A stretch of 39,409 nucleotides of DNA from a virus, in IMG/VR virus record IMGVR_UViG_3300027386_000002, positions 1 through 39,409 of that record, one strand, 5' to 3'. Made by a program: the position numbers and the translations under genes. Of the stretch, positions 4,021 through 39,409 are shown piece after piece. Positions within the stretch are counted from its first letter, which is position 1, and every line of letters begins with the position of its first letter. The notes under the pieces are model-generated. The model was not told where the DNA came from. It made no database searches and worked only from the letters and a program-made list of their open reading frames with translations.

Positions 4021-4971
4021 TCAGCTAACAGCGGCGGTGAACAGGAATCCCGCGTTCTGTTCGGTCACGTTGTGGTCGTAGTCCAGCCCCACATAGACCG
4101 CATCCGCTTCTGGGTTCTCGACCTTGTACTGGCGCACATAGCGATTACGCTGGTATTCGAAGGAGCGCCCGAACCCTATCTGCAGTGCTTGGTTCATCGC
4201 GGCGTTAGACATGCCCGCTTCTCTCCGGAAGACCAGGCAGTTATCCTGCCAGATCAGCTCGTTATCGGCGTCCGCGCCCTCGTTTGCTTCATCGAAGACC
4301 ATATCACCGACGAAGACGTTCTCGGGCGACAGCCACGTGAACAGCCCGGCGAACTGCTCGGTCGTCAGGTCCCCTTCTCGCACGTACTGGAAGCGGTTGA
4401 CGATCTTTGGGTTGCTCACCAGCGCCGTCCAGACGTTGCCGGCTAGAAGCACGGCGTTGGCCCTCATGCCGCACCCGATGAGCACCTGGAGTGCCGCGTC
4501 GTTGAGGTCGCTGATGGGGTCTCCGTTGTCGGCGTCCCACTTATTAGCCGGCACAGAGGTATAGTTAGCGTTGAACGCGCCAGCCGCAAAGCACTTATCG
4601 CGCGCATCGACCTCAGCCGAGATCATCAGTTGCCCCGTCATGGTCATGGTCATCGCTTCGGACGGGTCGAGCACCTCATCCATATCGAACATGGCGTGGT
4701 TGACATCGATCAGGTCATAGAGGCTGTGGTGGTCGAGGCTGTAGGGGTGGGGCTCCGGCACCCAGTGGCTGCGTTCGGCCGGCTCGAGGTAGGCCCTGGG
4801 GCCGGTATTGACGTGGCGCAGGTTCTCGGGCCGCATGATGTACACGCTGCTCTTTTTCTTCGTCACGTACTTGACGGGGAAGGGTCCGTTACGCACGGAC
4901 ATCGGGTTGTTGTAGGCCAGCGACAGATCGCTCAGTGGCCTACTTACATAGGTCGTGCCTTCGGCTGGCAT
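4021..4971 (-). CDS. Major capsid protein (316 aa), lambda gpE-like / HK97 fold
   Basis: AGGAG lies 8 nt upstream of the ATG. The gene follows the protease, scaffold and decoration genes. Its size and sequence character resemble the Phage_cap_E family, but homology could not be searched. Confidence 0.75.
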   Translation of the reverse strand: MPAEGTTYVSRPLSDLSLAYNNPMSVRNGPFPVKYVTKKKSSVYIMRPENLRHVNTGPRAYLEPAERSHWVPEPHPYSLDHHSLYDLIDVNHAMFDMDEVLDPSEAMTMTMTGQLMISAEVDARDKCFAAGAFNANYTSVPANKWDADNGDPISDLNDAALQVLIGCGMRANAVLLAGNVWTALVSNPKIVNRFQYVREGDLTTEQFAGLFTWLSPENVFVGDMVFDEANEGADADNELIWQDNCLVFRREAGMSNAAMNQALQIGFGRSFEYQRNRYVRQYKVENPEADAVYVGLDYDHNVTEQNAGFLFTAAVS

Positions 4972-4993: not shown

Positions 4994-5368
4994 CTATCGT
5001 TCGAGGGTAAGGATCTGCGCTACTTCGCCGTTGGCCGCGCCACCGATGCACCTACCGATGCTGTTGGCGGTGGCCGCCGCGCCGTCGGATACGACCTTAG
5101 CGGCGTTGTTGGCGCGGACGAAGTGACCGTCCGCGATGGCCCCGGCCGCGGCCACGCGCACCGTCTGCGAGTGTCTCCAGTCGGCAATCGGCACCACATC
5201 ACCCGCGGCCCGGGGCGCCTCGTAGAAGACACCGTCGGGCTTGGCGTTGTTGCCCGTGGCGATCATGCGGCGGTTGGCCGAGATGTTGCAGAGGGTGAAG
5301 GCCTCAGCGGCGGCGGCAGCGCCCCCGGAGGCATAGCTGACATATACAACTCCAGAATCAAGGGCCAT
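4994..5368 (-). CDS. Head decoration / cement protein (124 aa), DUF2190-like
   Basis: It is a small Ala/Gly-rich protein encoded immediately upstream of the capsid gene. GAGGGG precedes the ATG. Confidence 0.55.
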   Translation of the reverse strand: MALDSGVVYVSYASGGAAAAAEAFTLCNISANRRMIATGNNAKPDGVFYEAPRAAGDVVPIADWRHSQTVRVAAAGAIADGHFVRANNAAKVVSDGAAATANSIGRCIGGAANGEVAQILTLER

Positions 5369-5972: not shown

Positions 5973-6674
5973 CTAGGGTCTGAAAATAGAATCGGCAAAT
6001 CCCTTGTCAACAGCCATGCTGGCGGACATGTAGGTCTCTGCGGTCATCATGCGGCGGCACTGCAACACCGACAGGCCGGTCGACTCGGCATAGATGGAGG
6101 CCATCATGGCGTTCTTCTCCACGACGTATTCGGCCAGCGCGGTCGCTTTCTGGGCCACTTTCTTCAGGCCGTTCTCGTCGTAGTAGCCGTACGCATCAAG
6201 CGGGTATCGCACCTCGTGGATCATCATGGATCCCATGTCCGCAATCTGCCTTTGGTCGGCCAACTGCGTCAACAGGGTCGATCCGCTGGCGTCCATACCC
6301 TCCACCAGCGCATTGATCCTGCCGCCCTCCTGCTGATACATCTGCAGGCGCAGCCGGCAGCGTGCCGCCTCATCTATCTGGCCACCCGGCGAGTTGATAC
6401 GCAGCATCAGCTCGTTACCCGTGACACGGGCCATCTGCTCCTCGAACACGCCGTAGGTCATGTAGTTCGACTCACCGTAATAGCGCATCATATCGCCCAC
6501 CCTCTCGGAGACGAACGGGCCATAGATGAAGATGGTGTTCTCGGCGTACTCCCTTGGCCTAAAAGGCATGGGCCGGTCTTCGTCCCTCTCTTCGGACATC
6601 TCGGCCACGGCGCCCTTGTAGCAGGCGGCCCACAGCGCGGCGACTGGGTCTTTATTCTTCGGTTGGTTCGTCAT
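5973..6674 (-). CDS. ClpP/S49-like prohead maturation protease (233 aa)
   Basis: It carries the motifs INSPGG, GMDASGSTLL (serine nucleophile context) and MMIHEV (histidine). It overlaps the end of the portal gene. Confidence 0.8.
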   Translation of the reverse strand: MTNQPKNKDPVAALWAACYKGAVAEMSEERDEDRPMPFRPREYAENTIFIYGPFVSERVGDMMRYYGESNYMTYGVFEEQMARVTGNELMLRINSPGGQIDEAARCRLRLQMYQQEGGRINALVEGMDASGSTLLTQLADQRQIADMGSMMIHEVRYPLDAYGYYDENGLKKVAQKATALAEYVVEKNAMMASIYAESTGLSVLQCRRMMTAETYMSASMAVDKGFADSIFRP

Positions 6675-7965
6675 CGGATTCCTCGTTTGGTTGGTCGTCC
6701 GGCTGATCGATTGGCGGCTGTCTGGGTATGCCCTTCTCCACGAGCTTCATATCAGCCCTAAGCTGGGCCTCGAGGTCGTCGTCCGGGACGATGAAGCCAC
6801 CGCGCCCGAGGCGCTCGATGTGCTCGGCGATGCGAAAGACGCGGGTGGCGTCGAGGTTGGCCCACCGCATCAGCGGCCTAGGCGCCGCATCCCCGAAGTT
6901 GAAGGCCACCAGCTTCTTTATGATATCAATATTAATGGCATCGACCACCTCGTCGAGCAGCGAGCCGAGCACGTTGAACAGTATCTCGTAGAGGTCGGAG
7001 GACAAGGAGCGGTTGGCCGTTTCACTTTCAGACAGGTCGAGGATATGGCTGAACAGCGAGCGGCTGATCTCTAGGTTGTAGTACCGGAAGCGGCCCAGTA
7101 TGTCCACCTCCGGGCGGGCCGACTGCAAGTACTCGAGCTCGAGCCGGTCCTTGGGCAGCAGCAGGTAGGACGACTGATGGGAGGTCATGCGACTAAGCAG
7201 CCCACGGAAAACGTTGCGCTCCGCCAGAGAGACCTCTTCCTCGTAGCGTCCCACCGGCAGGGGCATCAGTTGCCGTCGCGTCCCCAGCAGGTCGGCGTAG
7301 AACAGTTGCAGCTTGGCGAACCAAGGGCGATAACAGGAGCGCAACAGGCTGCGGCCGCGGTGGCTGTCGCCGATGGAGTAGGGCGAGAAGTAGCAGAGCC
7401 GGTCGCGTAGCAGTGTTATCTGTTGGGGCATGTCGTTGTCGTCGTTGACCTGCTGGACGACACTCGTGACGTGGCCCCTATCGTCGTTAAATTCCTCGAT
7501 ACTGTTCTGCCACCGGAACTCAGTCGACAGGGTGTTAGCGCCGTCCATGAACGGATAGGCCAGCTCGTGGATCGAGAAGCCATGCTCCAGCGAGGTGAGC
7601 ATTTCCCTGAGCAGCTTGCGGAAGTTGGCGCGCGGGTTGGGGTCGACAGCGTCGTCGAGGCCCAACTCGTTGGCGACGAAGGAGCGGACCGTCTCGTCGC
7701 CACCCTCCAGCGTGAACGTCGAGCTGAGCAAAGGGGACTTGAGCAGCAGCAGGTCGGACGCCACCTGGCTGTCGTCGCGGGCCATGAACCCATAAATGAG
7801 ATTCGAGCGGCGACCGGCCAGACTACTGGTGTCGTAGTCCCCGAGGTTATCGTCTATAGGCGGTATCGGCGAGGCGTCGGCGAACGGTGCCCAAGCGATG
7901 GGGCTCAGGTCGTAGTCGTAATCACCTTGCGAGTAGAAGTTGCCCAGCGAGTTGAATAGTCCCAT
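6652..7965 (-). CDS. Portal protein (437 aa from ATG 7965)
   Basis: It is a large ORF directly upstream of the protease gene. The track start at 8016 is TTG, and alternative ATG starts lie at 8007 and 7965. ATG 7965 lies 8 nt after a TAAGTT -10-like box and avoids overlap with the divergent gene. Confidence 0.7.
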   Translation of the reverse strand: MGLFNSLGNFYSQGDYDYDLSPIAWAPFADASPIPPIDDNLGDYDTSSLAGRRSNLIYGFMARDDSQVASDLLLLKSPLLSSTFTLEGGDETVRSFVANELGLDDAVDPNPRANFRKLLREMLTSLEHGFSIHELAYPFMDGANTLSTEFRWQNSIEEFNDDRGHVTSVVQQVNDDNDMPQQITLLRDRLCYFSPYSIGDSHRGRSLLRSCYRPWFAKLQLFYADLLGTRRQLMPLPVGRYEEEVSLAERNVFRGLLSRMTSHQSSYLLLPKDRLELEYLQSARPEVDILGRFRYYNLEISRSLFSHILDLSESETANRSLSSDLYEILFNVLGSLLDEVVDAINIDIIKKLVAFNFGDAAPRPLMRWANLDATRVFRIAEHIERLGRGGFIVPDDDLEAQLRADMKLVEKGIPRQPPIDQPDDQPNEESDDEPTEE

Positions 7966-7969
7966 GGTG

Positions 7970-7998
7970 TTGAAACTTACAGATTCTTTCGCTAAAAT
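7970..7998 (+). promoter_or_regulatory. sigma70-type promoter TTGAAA-17 nt-TAAAAT for the packaging operon
   Basis: The -35 box is at 7970-7975 and the -10 box at 7993-7998. The ATG at 8006 lies 7 nt after the -10 box and has no SD, which implies a leaderless or near-leaderless mRNA. Confidence 0.55.
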
Positions 7999-8002
7999 AC
8001 AA
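7974..8002 (-). promoter_or_regulatory. Candidate divergent promoter TTGTAT-17 nt-TAAGTT for the head operon
   Basis: The minus-strand -35 box is at 8002-7997 and the -10 box at 7979-7974, followed by 8 nt and then ATG 7965. The match to consensus is weaker than for the plus-strand partner. Confidence 0.35.
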
Positions 8003-8005
8003 ACC

Positions 8006-8386
8006 ATGAGATTCAAGAGCGAGGCCGCGTTTCAGAAGCACGTCATAGCCATAGCCAAGCTGGGCGGCTGGGAGGTCTTCCATCAGGGGGACATGCGCCA
8101 CATCCTCTCGGGCGTGGGCTATCCCGACCTAACGCTCATCAGCCAGCGTGAGCCGCGCGTGATTTTCGCTGAGTTGAAGACGGACAAAGGCGAGAGGAGC
8201 GCGGAGCAGGTCAGATACGCCGCAGTAATCTCGTCGTTGGGCATCCGGGGCGTCGAGTACTATCTATGGAGGCCCAAGCACCTTGAGAAGATCAAGCAGG
8301 TGCTCAAAGGAACGGGCGATCCGGAGCGAAGACGACGCTTCACCGCCACGCTGGGACTCATGCTAAAGGAGAGCAACAAGAGATGA
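8006..8386 (+). CDS. VRR-NUC family PD-(D/E)XK nuclease (126 aa)
   Basis: It carries GYPDLTLI...VIFAELKTDKGERSAEQ, the classic VRR-NUC D...E.K...Q pattern. The track ORF begins upstream at 7940, but ATG 8006 fits the promoter. Confidence 0.75.
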   Translation: MRFKSEAAFQKHVIAIAKLGGWEVFHQGDMRHILSGVGYPDLTLISQREPRVIFAELKTDKGERSAEQVRYAAVISSLGIRGVEYYLWRPKHLEKIKQVLKGTGDPERRRRFTATLGLMLKESNKR

Positions 8387-8667
8387 ACATATGCGGAGCA
8401 CCATGCTCACGGACGGGCAACGGGATATGTAAAAACAAGGTTAGGCGCAAGGGCCAACTATGCTATGCCCACAAAGACCTCAAGCACTTCACTCAGTTGG
8501 ACATAGCCGAAGTCGTCCAGCTCCTCATCGTAGAGGGCCGCAGAGGGCTTGACAGCTTGGATACGATAGAAGACCCAAGCGCTCGCGCTCTGGCCACCAG
8601 AGAGGCTTGCCGCTGCTTCTCGACGATGGCGGCCTTATGCAAGCAATTCCAGGTCAAGTTCGAGTAA
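8383..8667 (+). CDS. Small zinc-ribbon protein (94 aa); possible small terminase by position
   Basis: AAGGAGAG precedes the ATG, and its start forms an ATGA overlap with the upstream stop. The N-terminus is CGAPC...C.N.V..KGQLCYAH. It lies directly upstream of the packaging ATPase. Confidence 0.6.
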   Translation: MNICGAPCSRTGNGICKNKVRRKGQLCYAHKDLKHFTQLDIAEVVQLLIVEGRRGLDSLDTIEDPSARALATREACRCFSTMAALCKQFQVKFE

Positions 8668-8668
8668 C

Positions 8669-9682
8669 ATGGCAATAAAGGTCAACGCATCGGGAGGGGA
8701 GCACGACCTGTGGCTGCCCGGCGACGAGCGCATCGAGGACTTGGAGCTGTTCACCAGCCAGCAGTTGGGCATGAACATCACGCCGGAGATGGTCCTTTCC
8801 CGCAGCAAGAAGAACCAGCAGTACAAGCGGGCCACGGCGCTGACCCGGCAGCAGGTCGACACCATCCTGTCGGTCAAGGAGCACCGGCGCACCGTCGTCC
8901 GGGGAGCGCACAGCCTGGGCAAGTCCGTGGCCATAGGCGTCTTGGGCTGTTGGTGGCTGACGCGCAAACGCGACAACATGGTGCTGATGGCGTCCGCCAA
9001 AGAGGATCAGGTGTCCAAGGTGCTGTTCCCCAACATGTTGGGCCACTACGTCCGGGCGTTCGGTAGGCGCGGCAAGCTGGGCGCACTGCAGGTCTATCCC
9101 GACCAGCTCGCCCATCCCAAGTGGTGCGCCATAGGCATCAGCGGCCAGAACACCGAGGCTTTCGCCAGCTACCACCCGCACGGCGACGGCGAGGTCTTGC
9201 TGGTAATCGATGAGGGCAGCGCCATGACCGACGCGCTGGCGCAGGCGGCCGAGGGGCTGATAAGCAGCGAGGCGGCGCGGATAGTGGTGCTGGGCAACCC
9301 GCTCAACACCCAGCCGCGCGATCCCTTCCGCGCCTTGTTCACCGACAAGCAGTACAATAGGATTCACTGGAAGACCAGCGAGCATCCCAACATCCAGCAT
9401 CAGAGGCCGATCTATCCTGGTTGCATCTCCCAAAAATGGATCAACGAGATGATTGAACGGCACGGGTTAGAGTCCGACCAGGTTCAGGCGCGTTGCTTCG
9501 GGGAGTTCCCGCCCATCAAGACCGACTCCGAGAAGGGCAAGCTCATCGACGTGAATGCCGTTGCCCAGTCATCGGGCTTGACCGTCGAGGAGATATTGGC
9601 CGAGATGCACAGCGAGGAACCGGAAGTAAAGGACCTGTTCCATTTCGTGGGGCAGGGACACACCTACTCACAGGGGGTATGA
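8669..9682 (+). CDS. Terminase large subunit, ATPase domain only (337 aa)
   Basis: It has Walker A VRGAHSLGKS and Walker B VLLVIDEGS, plus a linker-like motif FGEFP. The ORF stops about 60 aa later, with no RNaseH-like nuclease domain. Confidence 0.7.
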   Translation: MAIKVNASGGEHDLWLPGDERIEDLELFTSQQLGMNITPEMVLSRSKKNQQYKRATALTRQQVDTILSVKEHRRTVVRGAHSLGKSVAIGVLGCWWLTRKRDNMVLMASAKEDQVSKVLFPNMLGHYVRAFGRRGKLGALQVYPDQLAHPKWCAIGISGQNTEAFASYHPHGDGEVLLVIDEGSAMTDALAQAAEGLISSEAARIVVLGNPLNTQPRDPFRALFTDKQYNRIHWKTSEHPNIQHQRPIYPGCISQKWINEMIERHGLESDQVQARCFGEFPPIKTDSEKGKLIDVNAVAQSSGLTVEEILAEMHSEEPEVKDLFHFVGQGHTYSQGV

Positions 9683-10500
9683 TGAGACTACTATCGAACG
9701 ACGAGATCAAGGCCGGGTGTCAGGCGGCCAACATCATCCAGATGAGAGGTTGGGGCATCCGCGCCAACAGTCCCTTGGTCGGCAAGGGCGCGTTGGTCGA
9801 GGTGAAGGTGCAGGGCGGTGAGTGGTCCAACGCCAAAACGGGCGAGTCCGGGCAGATATGGAACATAGAGGCTTCATTCGTTCAGGAGATAGACGACCGC
9901 TCCGAGATCATGAACGTGCTCGACCGGATCATGGGCGAGGGGCCGATAGGGTTGTATGAGGATATATTCGCTCAGGGGTTTCGCAACCAGTTCGCCGCGA
10001 TATGCTGCCAAGGCAACATGCCAAGGGCACGGACGTTGATGCCGGCGTTCAAGCCCGAGGCGGAAGCATCGACCAGCGCCGCCAAGCGCGGATGCGCCAA
10101 CAGGGAGACCGAGGTAGCGGTGGAGTTTCAGGACATAATGAGCAATGCGACGACGAAGTGGTCGCCCTTCCAGCGACGCAACTATGCCAGGCCGAGGGAC
10201 AAGGCCGCGATCCACGGGCGCGAGTTGGCCAAGGCTACTACCATAGCCGTGGCGACGCATCCGACGCAACAGGGGATTAGTAGGATCAACCGCAGCAAAG
10301 GGGAGCAGCCCGCTCTGGATGCGCTATTGGCCGGTTGTTGGATACTCAATCGGGAGATCCAGAGGAGGTCGTTCAGGCCAAAGGCGGGGCCCAGAGCCGA
10401 CGAGCGTGGGGCATCACTGGACAGCGCCACGATGGCGCGATCGGTAGCAGAATCATCCCGACTCGACGGGGGCATCCTCCGTTTTCCTCGACAGCAATAG
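9679..10500 (+). CDS. Hypothetical protein (273 aa)
   Basis: Its start forms an ATGA overlap with the preceding stop. The N-terminal 110 aa or so look globular (KGALVEVKVQGGEWSNAKTGESGQIWNIEA has a weak OB-fold flavour). The C-terminal half is low complexity. The last 20 codons are read out of conserved element copy B. Confidence 0.5.
   Translation: MMRLLSNDEIKAGCQAANIIQMRGWGIRANSPLVGKGALVEVKVQGGEWSNAKTGESGQIWNIEASFVQEIDDRSEIMNVLDRIMGEGPIGLYEDIFAQGFRNQFAAICCQGNMPRARTLMPAFKPEAEASTSAAKRGCANRETEVAVEFQDIMSNATTKWSPFQRRNYARPRDKAAIHGRELAKATTIAVATHPTQQGISRINRSKGEQPALDALLAGCWILNREIQRRSFRPKAGPRADERGASLDSATMARSVAESSRLDGGILRFPRQQ
10421..10437 (+). repeat. Left copy of a perfect 17-bp direct repeat (acagcgccacgatggcg) flanking element copy B
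   Basis: The identical 17-mer recurs at 10542-10558. It contains the mini-hairpin cgcca-cga-tggcg. Confidence 0.9.
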
Positions 10501-10539
10501 TCCCGTACGGCGCGGAGTAAGGGGCCTCAATCCAGACCT
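10457..10539 (+). repeat. Conserved approximately 83-nt element, copy B
   Basis: It aligns with copies A and C. It lacks the upstream GTGGATA heptamers and sits inside a 104-nt segment (10438-10541) bounded by the 17-bp direct repeats. Confidence 0.85.
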
Positions 10540-10541
10540 GA

Positions 10542-10558
10542 ACAGCGCCACGATGGCG
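10542..10558 (+). repeat. Right copy of the 17-bp direct repeat
   Basis: acagcgccacgatggcg is identical to 10421-10437. Confidence 0.9.
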
Positions 10559-10687: not shown

Positions 10688-11063
10688 CGGACGTCTTAGA
10701 TTTGAACTTAGGTAGTAGTCGCGTTTTGCCCCTCCCCACCCCCCGGGCCTTCCATTCTTGATAATCGTTATTTAAGGAGTAAAAACAGCAGATAGGGAGC
10801 GGGTGGTTGGTGGCGGGTTGGTCTGGCGTGGTTGGGCTTGGGTGCTGGAGAGCGCACAGTCTGGTGTGTGTAGTGGGCGGGTGCGCTGGCAGTCTCTACC
10901 GTCTTGTGTAGTTGTCCCCTTTAGGTGTTACCTTCTGTTCCCTTTGGGTATCAGTGCGCGTGCCGGTTGTGGCCGCGTGGCTGGGTGCATGTTTTGCACG
11001 TTGTAAGCAATTGTCTTGCAACGAGTTATGGGCAAGTTAATTGTTTCACATGGAACAATAGTT

Positions 11064-11080
11064 TGGCATGGTTTTTGCAT
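11064..11080 (+). promoter_or_regulatory. sigma54 (RpoN)-type -24/-12 promoter upstream of the first early gene
   Basis: TGGCATG-GTTT-TTGCAT matches the consensus TGGCACG-N4-TTGCW at 11 of 12 specified positions with exact spacing. It lies 41 nt upstream of ATG 11121. Confidence 0.6.
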
Positions 11081-11120
11081 ATATAGGGGTAACAGCAGTT
11101 CACTTCTCAGGAGGCTTGAG

Positions 11121-11486
11121 ATGAGAGTTATAGTTTGCGGTGGCAGAGATTATCACGATAGCGAGCGGGTCTGGCGGGTGCTGGACGGTATCCATGCGAG
11201 GGAGTGCATCCACGTCGTAGGGCATGGAGCGGCGCGGGGAGCGGATAGCTTGGCGGGAGCGTGGGCGAGGGAGCGCGGCGTGATGGAGTTCGCACGTCCA
11301 GCGCAGTGGACGGAGTATGGTAGAGCGGCGGGGCCAAGGCGCAATAGCGAGTTGCTCAGGGAAGTGAAGCCAGCGCTGGTGGTGGTGTTCCCCGGCGGAG
11401 CAGGCACGGCGGATATGCGGAGGAAGGCGCAGCGGCAGCGGGGCGTGAAGGTGGTGACGGTCGCCGAGTCGGGAGGTTCGTCGTGA
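11121..11486 (+). CDS. SLOG-superfamily DUF2493-like protein (121 aa)
   Basis: AGGAGG precedes the ATG. The blocks MRVIVCGGRDY...GHGAARGADSLAGAWARERGV...GPRRNSELL...VVVFPGGAGTADM match the DUF2493 pattern as I know it. Confidence 0.8.
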   Translation: MRVIVCGGRDYHDSERVWRVLDGIHARECIHVVGHGAARGADSLAGAWARERGVMEFARPAQWTEYGRAAGPRRNSELLREVKPALVVVFPGGAGTADMRRKAQRQRGVKVVTVAESGGSS

Positions 11487-11635: not shown

Positions 11636-11723
11636 TAGTGCGTCCCCTCGTGGGACGCGGAGTGTTACCCAAGGGTTTGGGGGCCAGCACATAACCGCGC
11701 ACACGCGCAGGAGGATTGAGAAG

Positions 11724-12798: not shown

Positions 12799-13313
12799 CT
12801 AAAAACTCGGGCAACAATGAATGGTACACGCCACCAGAGATAATCGAGGCGGCGCGTAGGACGATGGGGAGGATAGACCTTGATCCGGCTTCAAACGAAG
12901 TAGCGCAACGCTGGATAGATGCGGGGAGCTACTACACGAAAGAGGACGACGGATTGCTCTTGTCGTGGGGAGGGCGCGTCTGGTTGAATCCGCCATACGA
13001 AGCGAAGCTGATCGGCCAGTTCGTGGACAAGCTGATCTCCTCAACTGGCATAGAGCAGGCCATCACCTTGACCAACAATGCCACCGAGACCAAGTGGGGT
13101 CAGAAGATATTGGCCAGCGCCAACGCCATCTGCTTCCCAAGCCAGCGCGTCAAGTTCCTCCGCCCCGAAGGCGAAAAGGGCAGCCCATTGCAGGGACAAA
13201 TGATAGCTGGTTTTGGCGTGGACAGAGTGCGCTTTGAGCAGGAGTTTGCACCACTGGGCGCGGTAGTCTTCACCTTGGTTCACTTGGGTAACAGTGATGT
13301 TTCCTTTAGGTAA
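12786..13313 (+). CDS. Phage Dam-type DNA N6-adenine methyltransferase (175 aa)
   Basis: It carries NEWYTPPEII, DLDPAS and WLNPPY (the catalytic NPPY), which match the phage N6A methylase family layout. Confidence 0.85.
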   Translation: MAHVAKNSGNNEWYTPPEIIEAARRTMGRIDLDPASNEVAQRWIDAGSYYTKEDDGLLLSWGGRVWLNPPYEAKLIGQFVDKLISSTGIEQAITLTNNATETKWGQKILASANAICFPSQRVKFLRPEGEKGSPLQGQMIAGFGVDRVRFEQEFAPLGAVVFTLVHLGNSDVSFR

Positions 13314-13356
13314 CACTTAGACGAAGGGGTTCATTGTGCCACAACAAGTTACAAGG

Positions 13357-13373
13357 TGGCACGGATTTTGCAA
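13357..13373 (+). promoter_or_regulatory. sigma54 (RpoN)-type -24/-12 promoter, perfect consensus
   Basis: TGGCACG-GATT-TTGCAA lies in the 116-nt gap between genes, 57 nt upstream of ATG 13430. Its -24 box is the right arm of the inverted repeat GTGCCAC-N13-GTGGCAC (13336-13362). Confidence 0.7.
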
Positions 13374-13429
13374 CGTAGTAGGACAACAGCAGAAGGGCAA
13401 TCCAGCCCACCAAACGAAGGAGAAGTGAG

Positions 13430-13838: not shown

Positions 13839-14108
13839 ATGGTTGATCCAGTAAGGCGCGGCGACGGCTATAGCAAGGGAGATGGCAACGGCAGCGGAAG
13901 GGGATGGGGAGACGGTAGCGGATTCGGTTCGGGATTCGGTTCGGGATTTGGCAACGGCGAGGGCAACGGAGGAGGTTGGGGAGACGGTAGCGGGAGCGAT
14001 GACGGTAGCGGTAGCGGTAGCGGTTCGGGATTTGGCAACGGCGAGAGCGACGGAGGAGGTTGGGGAGACGGTAGCGGGAGCGGGAGGGATGACGGTAGCG
14101 GAGACTAA
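13839..14108 (+). CDS. (Gly-X)n repeat protein with W/F at X positions (89 aa), cassette copy 1
   Basis: The sequence is MVDPVRRGDGYSKGDGNGSGRGWGDGSGFGSGFGSGFGNGEGNGGGWGDG... The SD is gcaggag. Its paralog lies at 15786-16145. Confidence 0.65.
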   Translation: MVDPVRRGDGYSKGDGNGSGRGWGDGSGFGSGFGSGFGNGEGNGGGWGDGSGSDDGSGSGSGSGFGNGESDGGGWGDGSGSGRDDGSGD

Positions 14109-15785: not shown

Positions 15786-16145
15786 ATGGAAGGTTCCGAG
15801 CGCAGAGAAGCAATGCTAAACGGCGACGGCGACGGCGAGGGCAACGGGAGCGGTTGGGGTAACGGCTATGGAGACGGCAGCGGTTGGGGCAGCGGATACG
15901 GCGACGGATGCGGCAACGGATGCGGCAACGGATGCGGCAACGGGATAGGCGCAGGCAACGGGCGCGGTGACGGCTATGCCAGTGGCGCAGGAGACGGTCA
16001 CGGAGCCGGTTGGGGTAAAGGCGCAGGAGAAGGCGACGGCAAGGGAGACGGCTACGGAGAAGGCAACGGGTGGGGAGACGGATACGGCAGCGGCAGCGGC
16101 ATCAGCAACAGCATCAGCAACCCAAGGAGAGACAACGTTGAATAG
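15786..16145 (+). CDS. (Gly-X)n repeat protein with W/Y/C at X positions (119 aa), cassette copy 2
   Basis: The sequence contains GDGDGEGNGSGWGNGYGDGSGWGSGYGDGCGNGCGNGCGNG...GWGDGYGSGSG. Confidence 0.65.
   Translation: MEGSERREAMLNGDGDGEGNGSGWGNGYGDGSGWGSGYGDGCGNGCGNGCGNGIGAGNGRGDGYASGAGDGHGAGWGKGAGEGDGKGDGYGEGNGWGDGYGSGSGISNSISNPRRDNVE
15906..15941 (+). repeat. Perfect 3 x 12-nt tandem repeat (ggatgcggcaac) inside the Gly-X gene
   Basis: Three exact copies encode GCGN three times. Confidence 0.9.
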
Positions 16146-17408: not shown

Positions 17409-17603
17409 GGGGCGGTGGCTCGACATCCGGGGCGGTGGCTTCGTCTAGTCCGCCAGTCATCGCCCCGGCCTCATTGAAGCGACGGGCACCGCAGATGGGT
17501 CGTTCTGGCTGCATTTTCTTTCCGGGGTGGAAACGCCCCGGCCTCATTGAAGCAAGCAAGCAAGCACCAACGAACTGGCGAGGGTCCACCTGTGCTCTTG
17601 CCT

Positions 17604-17648
17604 GGGCCGGGTAGGCAGGAGAGACCTGTCGCCCGGCCCGCACTTTTC
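17604..17648 (+). terminator. Hairpin plus T run between the SSB-like and helicase genes
   Basis: GGGCCGGG...CCCGGCCC forms a stem with an extended inner stem (aggcagg / cctgtc), followed by gcaCTTTTc. Confidence 0.45.
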
Positions 17649-17665
17649 AGGAAAGGGACAGAGTG

Positions 17666-19419: not shown

Positions 19420-19450
19420 GTTGGTAGGCCCACCAAATGGAGCTATTACA

Positions 19451-23378: not shown

Positions 23379-23461
23379 CCCGACTTGACGGGGGCATATT
23401 CCATTTCCATCGACAGCAATAGTCCCGTACGGCGCGGAGTAAGGGGCCTCAATCCAGACCT
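23379..23461 (+). repeat. Conserved approximately 83-nt element, copy C
   Basis: It aligns with copies A and B. It ends 23 nt before the tail-fibre ATG and 9 nt before its AAGGAGA SD. Confidence 0.85.
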
Positions 23462-23484
23462 AAAAGGCAAAAGGAGAACGTACC

Positions 23485-38256: not shown

Positions 38257-38353
38257 GGATTCTCTGTCCTGTTAGAGGTTCCTCTAATATAATGAGTGAT
38301 TTAGAACAGAAAAGGAGCGAAACAGGGTGACAAGGCTGCAAGAGAGGCGCGAA

Positions 38354-38429
38354 TTTTATCAGTTTTCGTCGATTTTGGCGATGTTTTGAGAGAATTCGGC
38401 CATCTTTTTGGCCAAAATATCGCCGTTTT
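38354..38429. other. Helically phased T4-5 tracts (predicted intrinsic DNA bend)
   Basis: T tracts occur at 38354, 38363, 38373, 38384, 38404 and 38426, with the first four spaced 9-11 bp apart. They lie upstream of the tail operon start. Confidence 0.5.
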
Positions 38430-38599
38430 GGCAACGGAATGGGCCGAGAATGGCCGCACGTCTAGTGCATATCTACGAATTTTGATGTAGATATCGGGGA
38501 TTTTTCCTGTATATGAATCGTATATACAATCTTGGTGGAGAGAAGCGGAGGAGGGGCTGTGGGGACAAAGATACACTGGTTAGTGTCGGATTTAGGCTA

Positions 38600-38759
38600 T
38601 TAACGCCCGTTTTGTTTCACTAGGCATATGATACCCTACGCACGCACGCGTATAGAAAAGCAAAATGGTAAATTACACAATATTGTGTATATAACGCGCA
38701 CGCGCACGCGCAGGGAAAGCACCTGGGCAATATGCCTAGTGAAGCAAGATGGGCGTTAA
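38600..38759. promoter_or_regulatory. Nested dyad-symmetry element: 30-bp imperfect inverted repeat arms around (CG/CA)n tracts and a central perfect 16-bp palindrome
   Basis: The arms are ttaacgcccgttttgtttcactaggcatat (38600-38629) and atatgcctagtgaagcaagatgggcgttaa (38730-38759). The centre is TACACAATATTGTGTA (38674-38689). The flanking tracts are acgcacgcacgcg and acgcgcacgcgcacgcgc. Confidence 0.8.
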
Positions 38760-38788
38760 TTGCTGGATTACGTTAGATTACGTAGTAT
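38760..38788 (+). promoter_or_regulatory. Candidate sigma70-type promoter TTGCTG-17 nt-TAGTAT for the zinc-finger gene
   Basis: It abuts the right arm of the dyad element. Its spacer contains gattacgt twice. Confidence 0.4.
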
Positions 38789-38813
38789 TATGTCCATTAA
38801 TAGGAGGCGTCTA

Positions 38814-39314
38814 ATGATGACCCAATGCGAAGGATGTAGCGTTCTAATAAGCCAGCCAGCAAAGGGAAGGCGTAGGAGATTCTGTAGCGATGCTTGTAGG
38901 AAAAGACTGCGTCGTATAGAGAACGGTCCTAACTATCCCGTAATAGAGTGCGCCAATGAAGGATGCACAGAGCGCTTTGAGAAGTGGAGCCATAACCACC
39001 GATTCTGTTCGGCTACCTGTAGGAATGCGGCCCAGTATCGGCGCAATAAGCCCCCATCAGAGGAAGTATGGATAGAGTGCGCTTCTGAATGGTGCAATGA
39101 GCATTTCAAGCGCGTCCACCCAAACCAGCGCTATTGTAGCGCTTCTTGTAGAGGCGGCGATATATCCATGTTCGGCGATCCATTGCCAGAAGATTGGGGA
39201 GAGCGGCTGGAGGAGAAGGCTAATCAGCGGCGAGCGTCTAATGGAAGACCCATAAAGCCCGGACAAGGATACTCTTTACCCTATCCGGGGCGAGCGGCTA
39301 ATGGAGAAGACTAA
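38814..39314 (+). CDS. Triple FCS/TRASH-like zinc-finger protein (166 aa)
   Basis: AGGAGG lies 5 nt before ATG 38814. It has three repeats of C-x2-C-x11-13-(F/Y)CS-x2-CR: CEGC...RFCSDACR, CANEGC...RFCSATCR and CASEWC...RYCSASCR. Confidence 0.7.
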   Translation: MMTQCEGCSVLISQPAKGRRRRFCSDACRKRLRRIENGPNYPVIECANEGCTERFEKWSHNHRFCSATCRNAAQYRRNKPPSEEVWIECASEWCNEHFKRVHPNQRYCSASCRGGDISMFGDPLPEDWGERLEEKANQRRASNGRPIKPGQGYSLPYPGRAANGED

Positions 39315-39409
39315 CCAGCGGCGTGGATACGTGGATAGTGATGTGGATAAGCGGCGCTATTATGCCCGACTCGACGGGGGCTTGTTCCATATCCCTCGAC
39401 AGCAATAGT
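39311..39409. repeat. Terminal 99-bp overlap identical to 1-99
   Basis: It is an exact duplicate of the window start and includes the first 45 nt of element copy A. Confidence 0.9.

Follow-up and report, generated by a model that had tools for sequence, protein, structure and literature searches.

Genome organization of the phage

The window, i.e. the whole stretch of viral DNA analysed here (39,409 nt), has a G+C content of approximately 60%. Its terminal 99 nt (1-99 and 39311-39409) are identical and represent an assembly overlap, which indicates a complete circular genome of about 39.3 kb. Contigs identical or near-identical to the window originated from metagenomes of the marine sponge Aplysina aerophoba. 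The main gene units were the following:

4021-4971, minus strand: major capsid gene; with a protease gene and the portal gene, it forms the head genes recognized by PHROG/Pfam scans
6652-8016, minus strand: portal gene
about 8006-10500, plus strand: short unit containing VRR-NUC-like and terminase-like ATPase genes, preceded by a sigma-70-like site (7970-7998)
from 11121, plus strand: block of small genes, including VRR-NUC, Dam, DUF6948, Dda-like helicase, primase, methyltransferase, tail fibre and lysin genes

The minus strand also holds a long block of unannotated genes, which are presumably structural. The sigma-70-like site (plus strand; TTGAAA-17-TAAAAT, 10/12 positions) is located where the portal gene and the plus-strand VRR-NUC-like gene diverge. 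The ATG of the latter, at 8006, is only about 8 nt past the -10 element, and its mRNA may be leaderless.

No DNA near-identical to the window was found in the cultured-phage collection, and protein matches to cultured phages, which had mixed hosts, were limited to 24-30% identity. Queries of IMG/VR with the DUF6948 protein and with the primase returned no relatives, and the Dam relatives found there were at most 48% identical. Patterns for the P1 block and for P2 (both promoters are described below) had 0 matches in JGI metagenomes, this collection evidently being without these samples.

A putative sigma-54 promoter upstream of the DUF6948 gene

Classical sigma-54 promoters combine upstream activator sites, a bend introduced by IHF, and a -24/-12 box of the form TGGCACG-N4-TTGCW. 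Such a box was found within the plus-strand block, in the 116-nt gap between the end of the Dam methyltransferase gene (13313) and the ATG of the DUF6948 gene (13430):

13357-13372, plus strand: putative sigma-54-type promoter P2, TGGCACGGATTTTGCA, with TGGCAC as the -24 element (GG at 13358-13359) and TTGCA as the -12 element (GC at 13370-13371)
13381-13391, plus strand: predicted start region, GGACAACAGCA, whose AACAGCA is kept at every promoter in the lineages of the window, L007, L012 and L065
13430-13837, plus strand: DUF6948 gene, the first downstream of P2 (135 aa; Pfam PF22253, E = 4.5e-23)

An earlier, sequence-only reading of this DNA had described the box as a full consensus match that was hardly expected by chance. 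Indeed, it agrees with the consensus at 12/12 defined positions, with GG and GC exactly 10 nt apart. Perfect matches occurred in 0 of 100 dinucleotide-preserving shuffles of the window, and the composition-based expectation, about 0.01 per genome over both strands, is close to the value of 0.005 given previously. At the one-mismatch level, 2 sites were found in the window versus 1.18 expected, a count that is not significant alone.

The reported position of the box, 57 nt upstream of ATG 13430, proved correct, and the gene that follows is co-oriented and preceded by a ribosome-binding site (GAAGGAG, 13416-13422). The gap is not the only sizeable one of the early block, as had been stated: the plus-strand block also contains gaps of 88 nt (11636-11723) and 255 nt (17409-17662), with several more of about 200 nt beyond them. 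No sigma-70-like site was detected by a sigma-70 scan of the 116-nt gap, and an Rfam search returned nothing at the promoter or its leader. From the -24/-12 geometry, the P2 start (+1) is predicted near 13383.

Just before start codons, we also observed a leader motif, GCCCACCAAA(Y)-GRAGG, at 13405-13422 and 19428-19444 in the window, and at 2730-2752 and 2976-2999 in the related contig L012. It looks like a shared translation-initiation region.

A putative sister promoter and the remnant of a third module

A second box, with a single mismatch (TGGCAT), precedes by 42 nt the gene for a SLOG/YAcAr protein (11121-11486) that opens the plus-strand replication block. The TGGCAT variant is frequent in genuine sigma-54 promoters.

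11064-11079, plus strand: sister sigma-54-type promoter P1, TGGCATGGTTTTTGCA, followed by tatata
11636-11723, plus strand: remnant flanks of a third promoter module, with a hairpin (GCGTCCC..GGGACGC), GGAGTGTTACCC and a leader, TAACCGCGCACACGCGCAGGAGG

Transcription from P1 would start near 11090. We considered whether P1 could be a sigma-70 site (TTGGCA..TATATA) and rejected this possibility: the spacer would be 11 nt, and the sigma-70 scan found no such site. P1 was near-invariant across five lineages. The sequence-only reading had paired P2 with the site at 11064, and this pairing was borne out: both boxes are kept in relatives, and the same upstream module is found at both. It had also proposed that the two promoters organize early and middle genes, which is plausible as far as the replication block is concerned.

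In the related contig L007, positions 310-560 contain a complete P1-type module between flanks homologous to window positions 11636-11723 (alignment A3). The window retains the hairpin, the TGTTACCC site and the leader there, and not the whole module. Since the module is complete in L007 and represented by its flanks alone in the window, the cassette has been gained or lost between near-identical phages.

Upstream sites and an IHF-core-like element accompany both boxes

Upstream of each box, we found a pair of 18-bp near-palindromes of the form TGTTYCC-TTTR-GGTAACA, 22 bp apart at P2 and 23 bp apart at P1, followed by a conserved element with an IHF-core-like part:

13276-13293, plus strand: distal upstream site of P2, TGGTTCACTTGGGTAACA, a candidate enhancer (UAS) centred near -98, within the Dam gene at its 3' end (direct-repeat family D1)
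13298-13315, plus strand: proximal upstream site of P2, TGTTTCCTTTAGGTAACA, centred near -76, 14/18 self-complementary, overlapping the Dam stop codon
13335-13351, plus strand: conserved element, TGTGCCACAACAAGTTA, of the form TGT-N4-CAAC-R-AGTTA, with an IHF-core-like CAA-N4-TTA at 13342-13351 (alignments A1 and A2)
10913-10930 and 10936-10953, plus strand: upstream sites of P1, TGTCCCCTTTAGGTGTTA (TGTTAC at 10926-10931) and TGTTCCCTTTGGGTATCA, centred near -168 and -145
11012-11028, plus strand: P1 copy of the conserved element, TGTCTTGCAACGAGTTA, with the IHF-core-like part centred near -66 and invariant columns in alignment A1

Apart from one remnant, the near-palindrome motif occurred in the window only ahead of the two sigma-54 boxes. 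The proximal P2 site is conserved in the L007-type and L012-type relatives, and near-palindromes were always present at the promoters of relatives, their number, orientation and distance varying with the lineage. An unbiased k-mer count identified GTAACA/TGTTAC as the top hexamer upstream of 8/8 phage boxes, with 14 occurrences versus 0.45 expected (31-fold), and GGTAACA as the top heptamer. At P2, the two copies (13288-13293 and 13310-13315) form GTAACA-N16-GTAACA.

Of the IHF consensus, the element that separates these sites from the box has no more than the CAA-N4-TTR core; at P2, this core is centred near -36, nearer the polymerase footprint than in textbook cases. At P1, positions -10 to -5 are AT-rich and are followed by the conserved (GGT)AACAGCA start region. 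The module found at both window promoters and in relatives thus comprises the upstream sites, the IHF-core-like element, the -24/-12 box and the AACAGCA start region. Judging from the sequence comparisons, it behaves as a portable cassette, whose copies are gained, lost and swapped among close relatives.

Several known types of site were compared with the near-palindromes and rejected. NifA-type sites are TGT-N10-ACA, and the phage sites are TGT-N12-ACA instead; among the sites of NtrC, TyrR/PhhR, OmpR and P2 Ogr (TGT-N12-ACA), in the forms that we take them to have, none fits both the sequence and the position. Moreover, the proximal P2 site with its flank (13303-13325, TTTAGGTAACACTTAGACGAAG) matches 12 of the first 13 positions of ATTTAGGTGACACTATAGAAG, which we take to be the SP6 RNA polymerase promoter. 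This likeness was considered a coincidence, as no phage RNA polymerase gene was found.

Conservation of the boxes in related phages

The P2 region was present as three haplotypes: the window type (seven contigs including the window, all identical), a 92% type (five contigs, L007-L011) and a 74% type (one contig, L012), the percentages being the identity of the DUF6948 protein to that of the window. The earlier claim had been made to depend on conservation of the motif, and both the P2 and the P1 boxes were found in relatives. The P2 box is identical in L007-L011, although the upstream gene differs there. In L012, the box (TGGAACGGAATTTGCG) keeps GG-N10-GC with two other mismatches and seems to be a weakened version. 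Further boxes were found on the coding strand of relatives anchored by the helicase (contigs of about 41-67 kb, helicase 47-54% identical):

L065, 4241, coding strand: TGGCACGGGTATTGCT
L065, 5235, coding strand: TGGCACACGACTTGCT
L067, 2494, coding strand: TGGCACGGAATTTGCAtatata
L069, 5078 (5078-5093), coding strand: TGGCACGGAATTTGCAtatata
L157, 5051, coding strand: TGGCACGGAATTTGCAtatata

These boxes have 0 or 1 mismatch, and all of them head the same early/replication small-gene operon. The more distant clade has P1 only, without P2. The GG/GC pair is retained in the box of every relative, L012 included. In alignments with a mean identity of 61-66%, it is the sigma-54 consensus positions that are invariant, the N4 spacer being variable; the relatives are homologous sequences, and part of the conservation of the box is shared ancestry.

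Two contigs from the same sample with homologous flanks, L068 and L069, differ at this position. Exactly where L069 carries its sigma-54 module, L068 has a sigma-70 promoter (4399-4427, TTGACA-17-TATATT, 11/12), the GTAACA sites having been lost together with the box. This exchange marks the position as that of a promoter and indicates that the two promoter types are interchangeable there. The DUF6948 genes of other phages (L013-L016) are found in different contexts, and L013 and L014 appear, from their sequences, to carry a sigma-70-type promoter; the sigma-54 box is thus not tied to the DUF6948 family.

These comparisons bear on whether the box is a chance consensus match, or a conserved element other than a promoter, such as a replication or packaging site. 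High-GC genomes do give spurious sigma-54-like matches, and the one-mismatch count is not above chance. However, shuffling gave no perfect match, and the strand of the box, its intergenic location and its spacing from a gene preceded by a ribosome-binding site are as expected of a promoter. Across lineages, moreover, the consensus positions are selectively kept, and the sibling phage has a sigma-70 promoter at the same spot. We consequently regard such an explanation as highly improbable.

The inverted repeat overlapping the -24 element

The inverted repeat described in the sequence-only reading does exist, with 7-bp arms GTGCCAC (13336-13342) and GTGGCAC (13356-13362) separated by 13 nt. It had been proposed that a hairpin or a dimeric repressor could occlude the -24 box at this repeat and thereby regulate P2. 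The repeat is exact, and when the 53-nt upstream flank was shuffled, a 7-bp partner overlapping the -24 element arose in as few as 0.4% of the shuffles, or in 2.9% when a partner for any part of the box was counted, both figures being post hoc.

However, of the three haplotypes, the window type alone retains the pairing. The 92% type (five contigs) has GTGCAGC as its left arm, and L012 has GTGCCGC together with a changed right arm (TGGAAC); no compensating change was seen, so that the arms are neither conserved nor co-varying. The left arm falls in the variable N4 of the conserved TGT-N4-CAAC-R-AGTTA element, and no equivalent repeat was found at P1 or at any promoter of the relatives. The folding energies are unremarkable (z = -1.32 as RNA and -1.16 as DNA, with 22-27 of 200 shuffles folding as well), a 7-bp stem with a 13-nt loop would make a poor cruciform, and the word GTGGCAC is not over-represented in the window (5 found versus 6.2 expected). 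The proposed occlusion was thus not upheld, and a regulatory role of the repeat is very improbable. Judging from these haplotypes, the repeat is probably a strain-specific coincidence outside the promoter mechanism. A divergent minus-strand sigma-54 promoter built on the left arm was also considered and rejected, with no TTGC at the right distance and no match at up to three mismatches.

Probable sigma-54 identity and proposed mechanism

The extended P1 core, TTTGGCAYGGNNWTTGCWTATAYA, was scanned against one genome per bacterial species. In the form TTTGGCAYGG-N2-WTTGCWTATAYA, it gave 82 matches on 81 stretches, versus about 1-3 expected. These stretches belonged to Clostridia, Bacilli, Bacteroidales, Planctomycetota, Alpha- and Betaproteobacteria, Poribacteria and others, and none was a relative of the phage. 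Matches spread across so many sigma-54-bearing phyla indicate that the phage core is an ordinary cellular form of sigma-54 promoter.

Overall, we consider it probable (roughly 70%), on sequence grounds, that 13357-13372 is a functional sigma-54 (RpoN) promoter, P2, which lies inside the plus-strand replication block of this phage of lytic type and copies the P1 module in compact form. On the same grounds, transcription from P2 is likely to depend on sigma-54. Host RNA polymerase with sigma-54 would bind GG (13358-59) and GC (13370-71) as a closed complex, while a host NtrC-family enhancer-binding ATPase would occupy the distal and proximal GGTAACA-type sites (about -98 and -76), which, being 22 bp apart, lie on the same face of the helix. 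A DNA bend at the CAA-N4-TTA element, a putative binding site of IHF on account of its core sequence, would then bring the activator to the polymerase. ATP hydrolysis would open the promoter, and transcription would proceed from near 13383 into the DUF6948 gene and the downstream genes.

GTAACA modules in unrelated viral contigs

IMG/VR was searched for a pattern in which a pair of GTAACA copies separated by 14-20 nt precedes TGGCAY-N5-TTGC by 30-60 nt. The pattern gave 19 matches, versus 0 for a control hexamer of the same composition (GACATA). About half of the 19 matches were inside coding sequence. Those that were intergenic formed five independent groups (L161; L159/L170/L174; L171/L173; L163; L165), with a G+C content of 33-57%. 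Three or four GTAACA copies were observed in three groups (L161, L159/L170/L174 and L171/L173), among which the following loci were delimited:

L161, 10990-11091: GTAACA locus
L171, 5907-6001: GTAACA locus
L173, 4667-4761: GTAACA locus

Perfect IHF consensus sites were found in L161 and L171, at the expected place in the module. At E < 1e-4, no protein was common to the window and these viral loci. The pattern would reflect either a widespread family of activators with GTAACA specificity or a phage-borne recognizer of GTAACA.

The search for an activator

Sigma-54 promoters require an AAA+ enhancer-binding protein and never fire without the activated ATPase. The motifs GAFTGA, ESELFGH and GE[ST]G[TSV]GK were absent from all six frames of the window and of the fragments of relatives. 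The Sigma54_activat Pfam profile had no match in the 29 window ORFs scanned, and Pfam and PHROG scans of 39 window ORFs revealed no activator gene. The ORF at 8669-9682, which shares 41% identity with a gene of a relative and in which the motifs GAHSLGKS and LLVIDEGS occur, was examined as a hidden ATPase activator; its weak PHROG similarity is to terminase large subunits (E = 1.4e-11), and this candidate was rejected. Since the phage has no recognisable activator ATPase gene, we infer that the activator is of host origin. Replication genes wholly reliant on a host signalling protein would be unusual.

Another factor might read the -24/-12-like box, such as a phage sigma factor, an unusual host sigma factor or an unrecognised phage polymerase, the GGTAACA repeats being sites of a phage-encoded DNA-binding protein, e.g. 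the zf-CGNR protein encoded at 38760-39314. The lack of an activator ATPase in the phage favours this explanation, as does the occurrence of GTAACA repeats with a box in unrelated viral contigs of 33-57% G+C, which would be hard to reconcile with one host-specific activator. A zinc-finger ORF does exist, and the proximal P2 site resembles what we take to be the SP6 polymerase promoter (12/13 positions). However, the box is indistinguishable from cellular sigma-54 promoters, including the flanking TTT and TATA, and no single-subunit polymerase or sigma gene was found by PHROG or Pfam scans, which included every ORF of at least 600 aa. The window and the other viral loci have no protein in common at the threshold given above, and the sites, 45-170 bp upstream, are placed like enhancers and unlike occluding operators. 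On balance, we consider the involvement of another factor unlikely, and sigma-54 with a host activator remains our preferred reading.

Comparison with known systems

Compared with the classical sigma-54 promoters glnAp2, nifH and Pu, the phage promoters have the same core consensus with the exact GG-N10-GC spacing, paired candidate activator sites on one helix face at about -75 to -170, and an IHF-core-like element lying between these and the box, with an AT-rich stretch at -10 to -5 in P1. They differ in belonging to a phage genome without an activator gene, in the compactness of the P2 module, and in their behaviour as a portable cassette.

The closest working analogue appears to be CbrB of Pseudomonas, the resemblance being one of mode of action and not of membership. 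CbrB-dependent sigma-N promoters (crcZ, crcY and PP2810) contain TGTTAC-N12-14-GTAACA-N15-19-GTAACA, IHF and GG-N10-GC, with TGTTAC/GTAACA subsites 20-25 bp apart, centre to centre (PMC6296734, PMC8871633). The TGTTAC/GTAACA hexamers of the phage are identical to the CbrB half-site, the GTAACA-N16-GTAACA of P2 is within the R1-R2 spacing, its centre-to-centre distance of about 22 bp also matches, and the IHF-type element is likewise located between the sites and the box. In contrast to the F1-N12-14-R1-N15-19-R2 arrangement, P2 has no F1 at N12-14 (best 3/6), and P1 is TGTTAC-N16-GTATCA with no R2. Moreover, the phage sites, unlike those of CbrB, are 18-bp near-palindromes with GG/CC flanks, and the phage comes from sponge microbiomes. 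Since CbrAB has been reported only in Pseudomonadaceae, naming CbrB as the activator is not justified.

A sigma-54-like promoter is used by the Pseudomonas phage YuA (Ceyssens et al. 2008, as cited in PMC10914365), and a sigma-54 promoter in a phage is thus of an already known kind, as far as the citing article describes it. By that account, both phages would rely on host sigma-54 for part of their transcription, a reliance that is here deduced from the promoter motifs. There is no sequence relationship between the two, with no near DNA match and protein matches of 24-30% only. Unlike in YuA, the promoter here heads the whole replication block, is conserved within the lineage and has a defined upstream module.

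We tentatively propose, as a possibility that we hold to be rather doubtful, that a lytic-type phage lineage of sponge symbionts, and apparently several unrelated groups too, place their early/replication genes under host sigma-54 by means of a portable enhancer cassette. In a phage without an activator, a host two-component or stress signal would then control the onset of development by way of a GTAACA-specific activator, undescribed outside Pseudomonas CbrB, and the cassette could be swapped for a sigma-70 promoter to escape this control. If this is true, development of the phage would require a particular host signalling pathway to be active, and host physiology would thus be sensed without lysogeny. 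A concrete, testable system is offered by the conserved module together with the sigma-54-to-sigma-70 swap that occurred naturally in siblings, and the module would be a ready-made part for signal-gated phages or synthetic circuits. For annotation, comparison within a lineage can validate a perfect consensus match, or dismiss an eye-catching inverted repeat.

Other features of the genome

Several additional features were observed in the window. The 255-nt gap before the helicase gene contains two CRISPR-repeat-like units, 36 nt apart, on the plus strand (17422-17480 and 17517-17553; Rfam CRISPR-DR16, 35.6 and 31.3 bits, for a gathering score of 35), and none was found in relatives at the gathering threshold. 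They could be a phage-borne mini-array or solitary repeats, and might act as an RNA anti-CRISPR or provide a clue to the host.

Positions 1-2600 have a G+C content of 60-68% (65-68% in the first 2 kb), a strongly negative AT skew and many direct repeats of 50-215 nt; the largest ORF of this region had no family match. At the other end, 38257-39314 has a low G+C content (about 50%) and is AT-rich, then contains a 184-aa ORF at 38760-39314 on the plus strand. This ORF has three C-x2-C...FCS-x2-C repeats, matches zf-CGNR exactly at the Pfam cut-off, and is a possible phage regulator.

The ORFs at 13839-14108 and 15786-16145 contain Gly-rich 12-nt repeats coding for GDG/GSG/GWG-type units (repeat family D3), and the latter ORF has a weak TrAA12-like Pfam match. 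Finally, three copies of a repeat (...CCCGACTYGACGGGGGC...TCGACAGCAATAGTCCCGTACGGCGCGGAGTAAGGGGCCTCAATCCAGACCT), about 86 nt long and extending to about 140 nt at most, are present at module boundaries: at the genome junction (55-140), after the ORF at 9493-10500 (10457-10542), and directly before the gene of the 1306-aa tail fibre (23379-23464).
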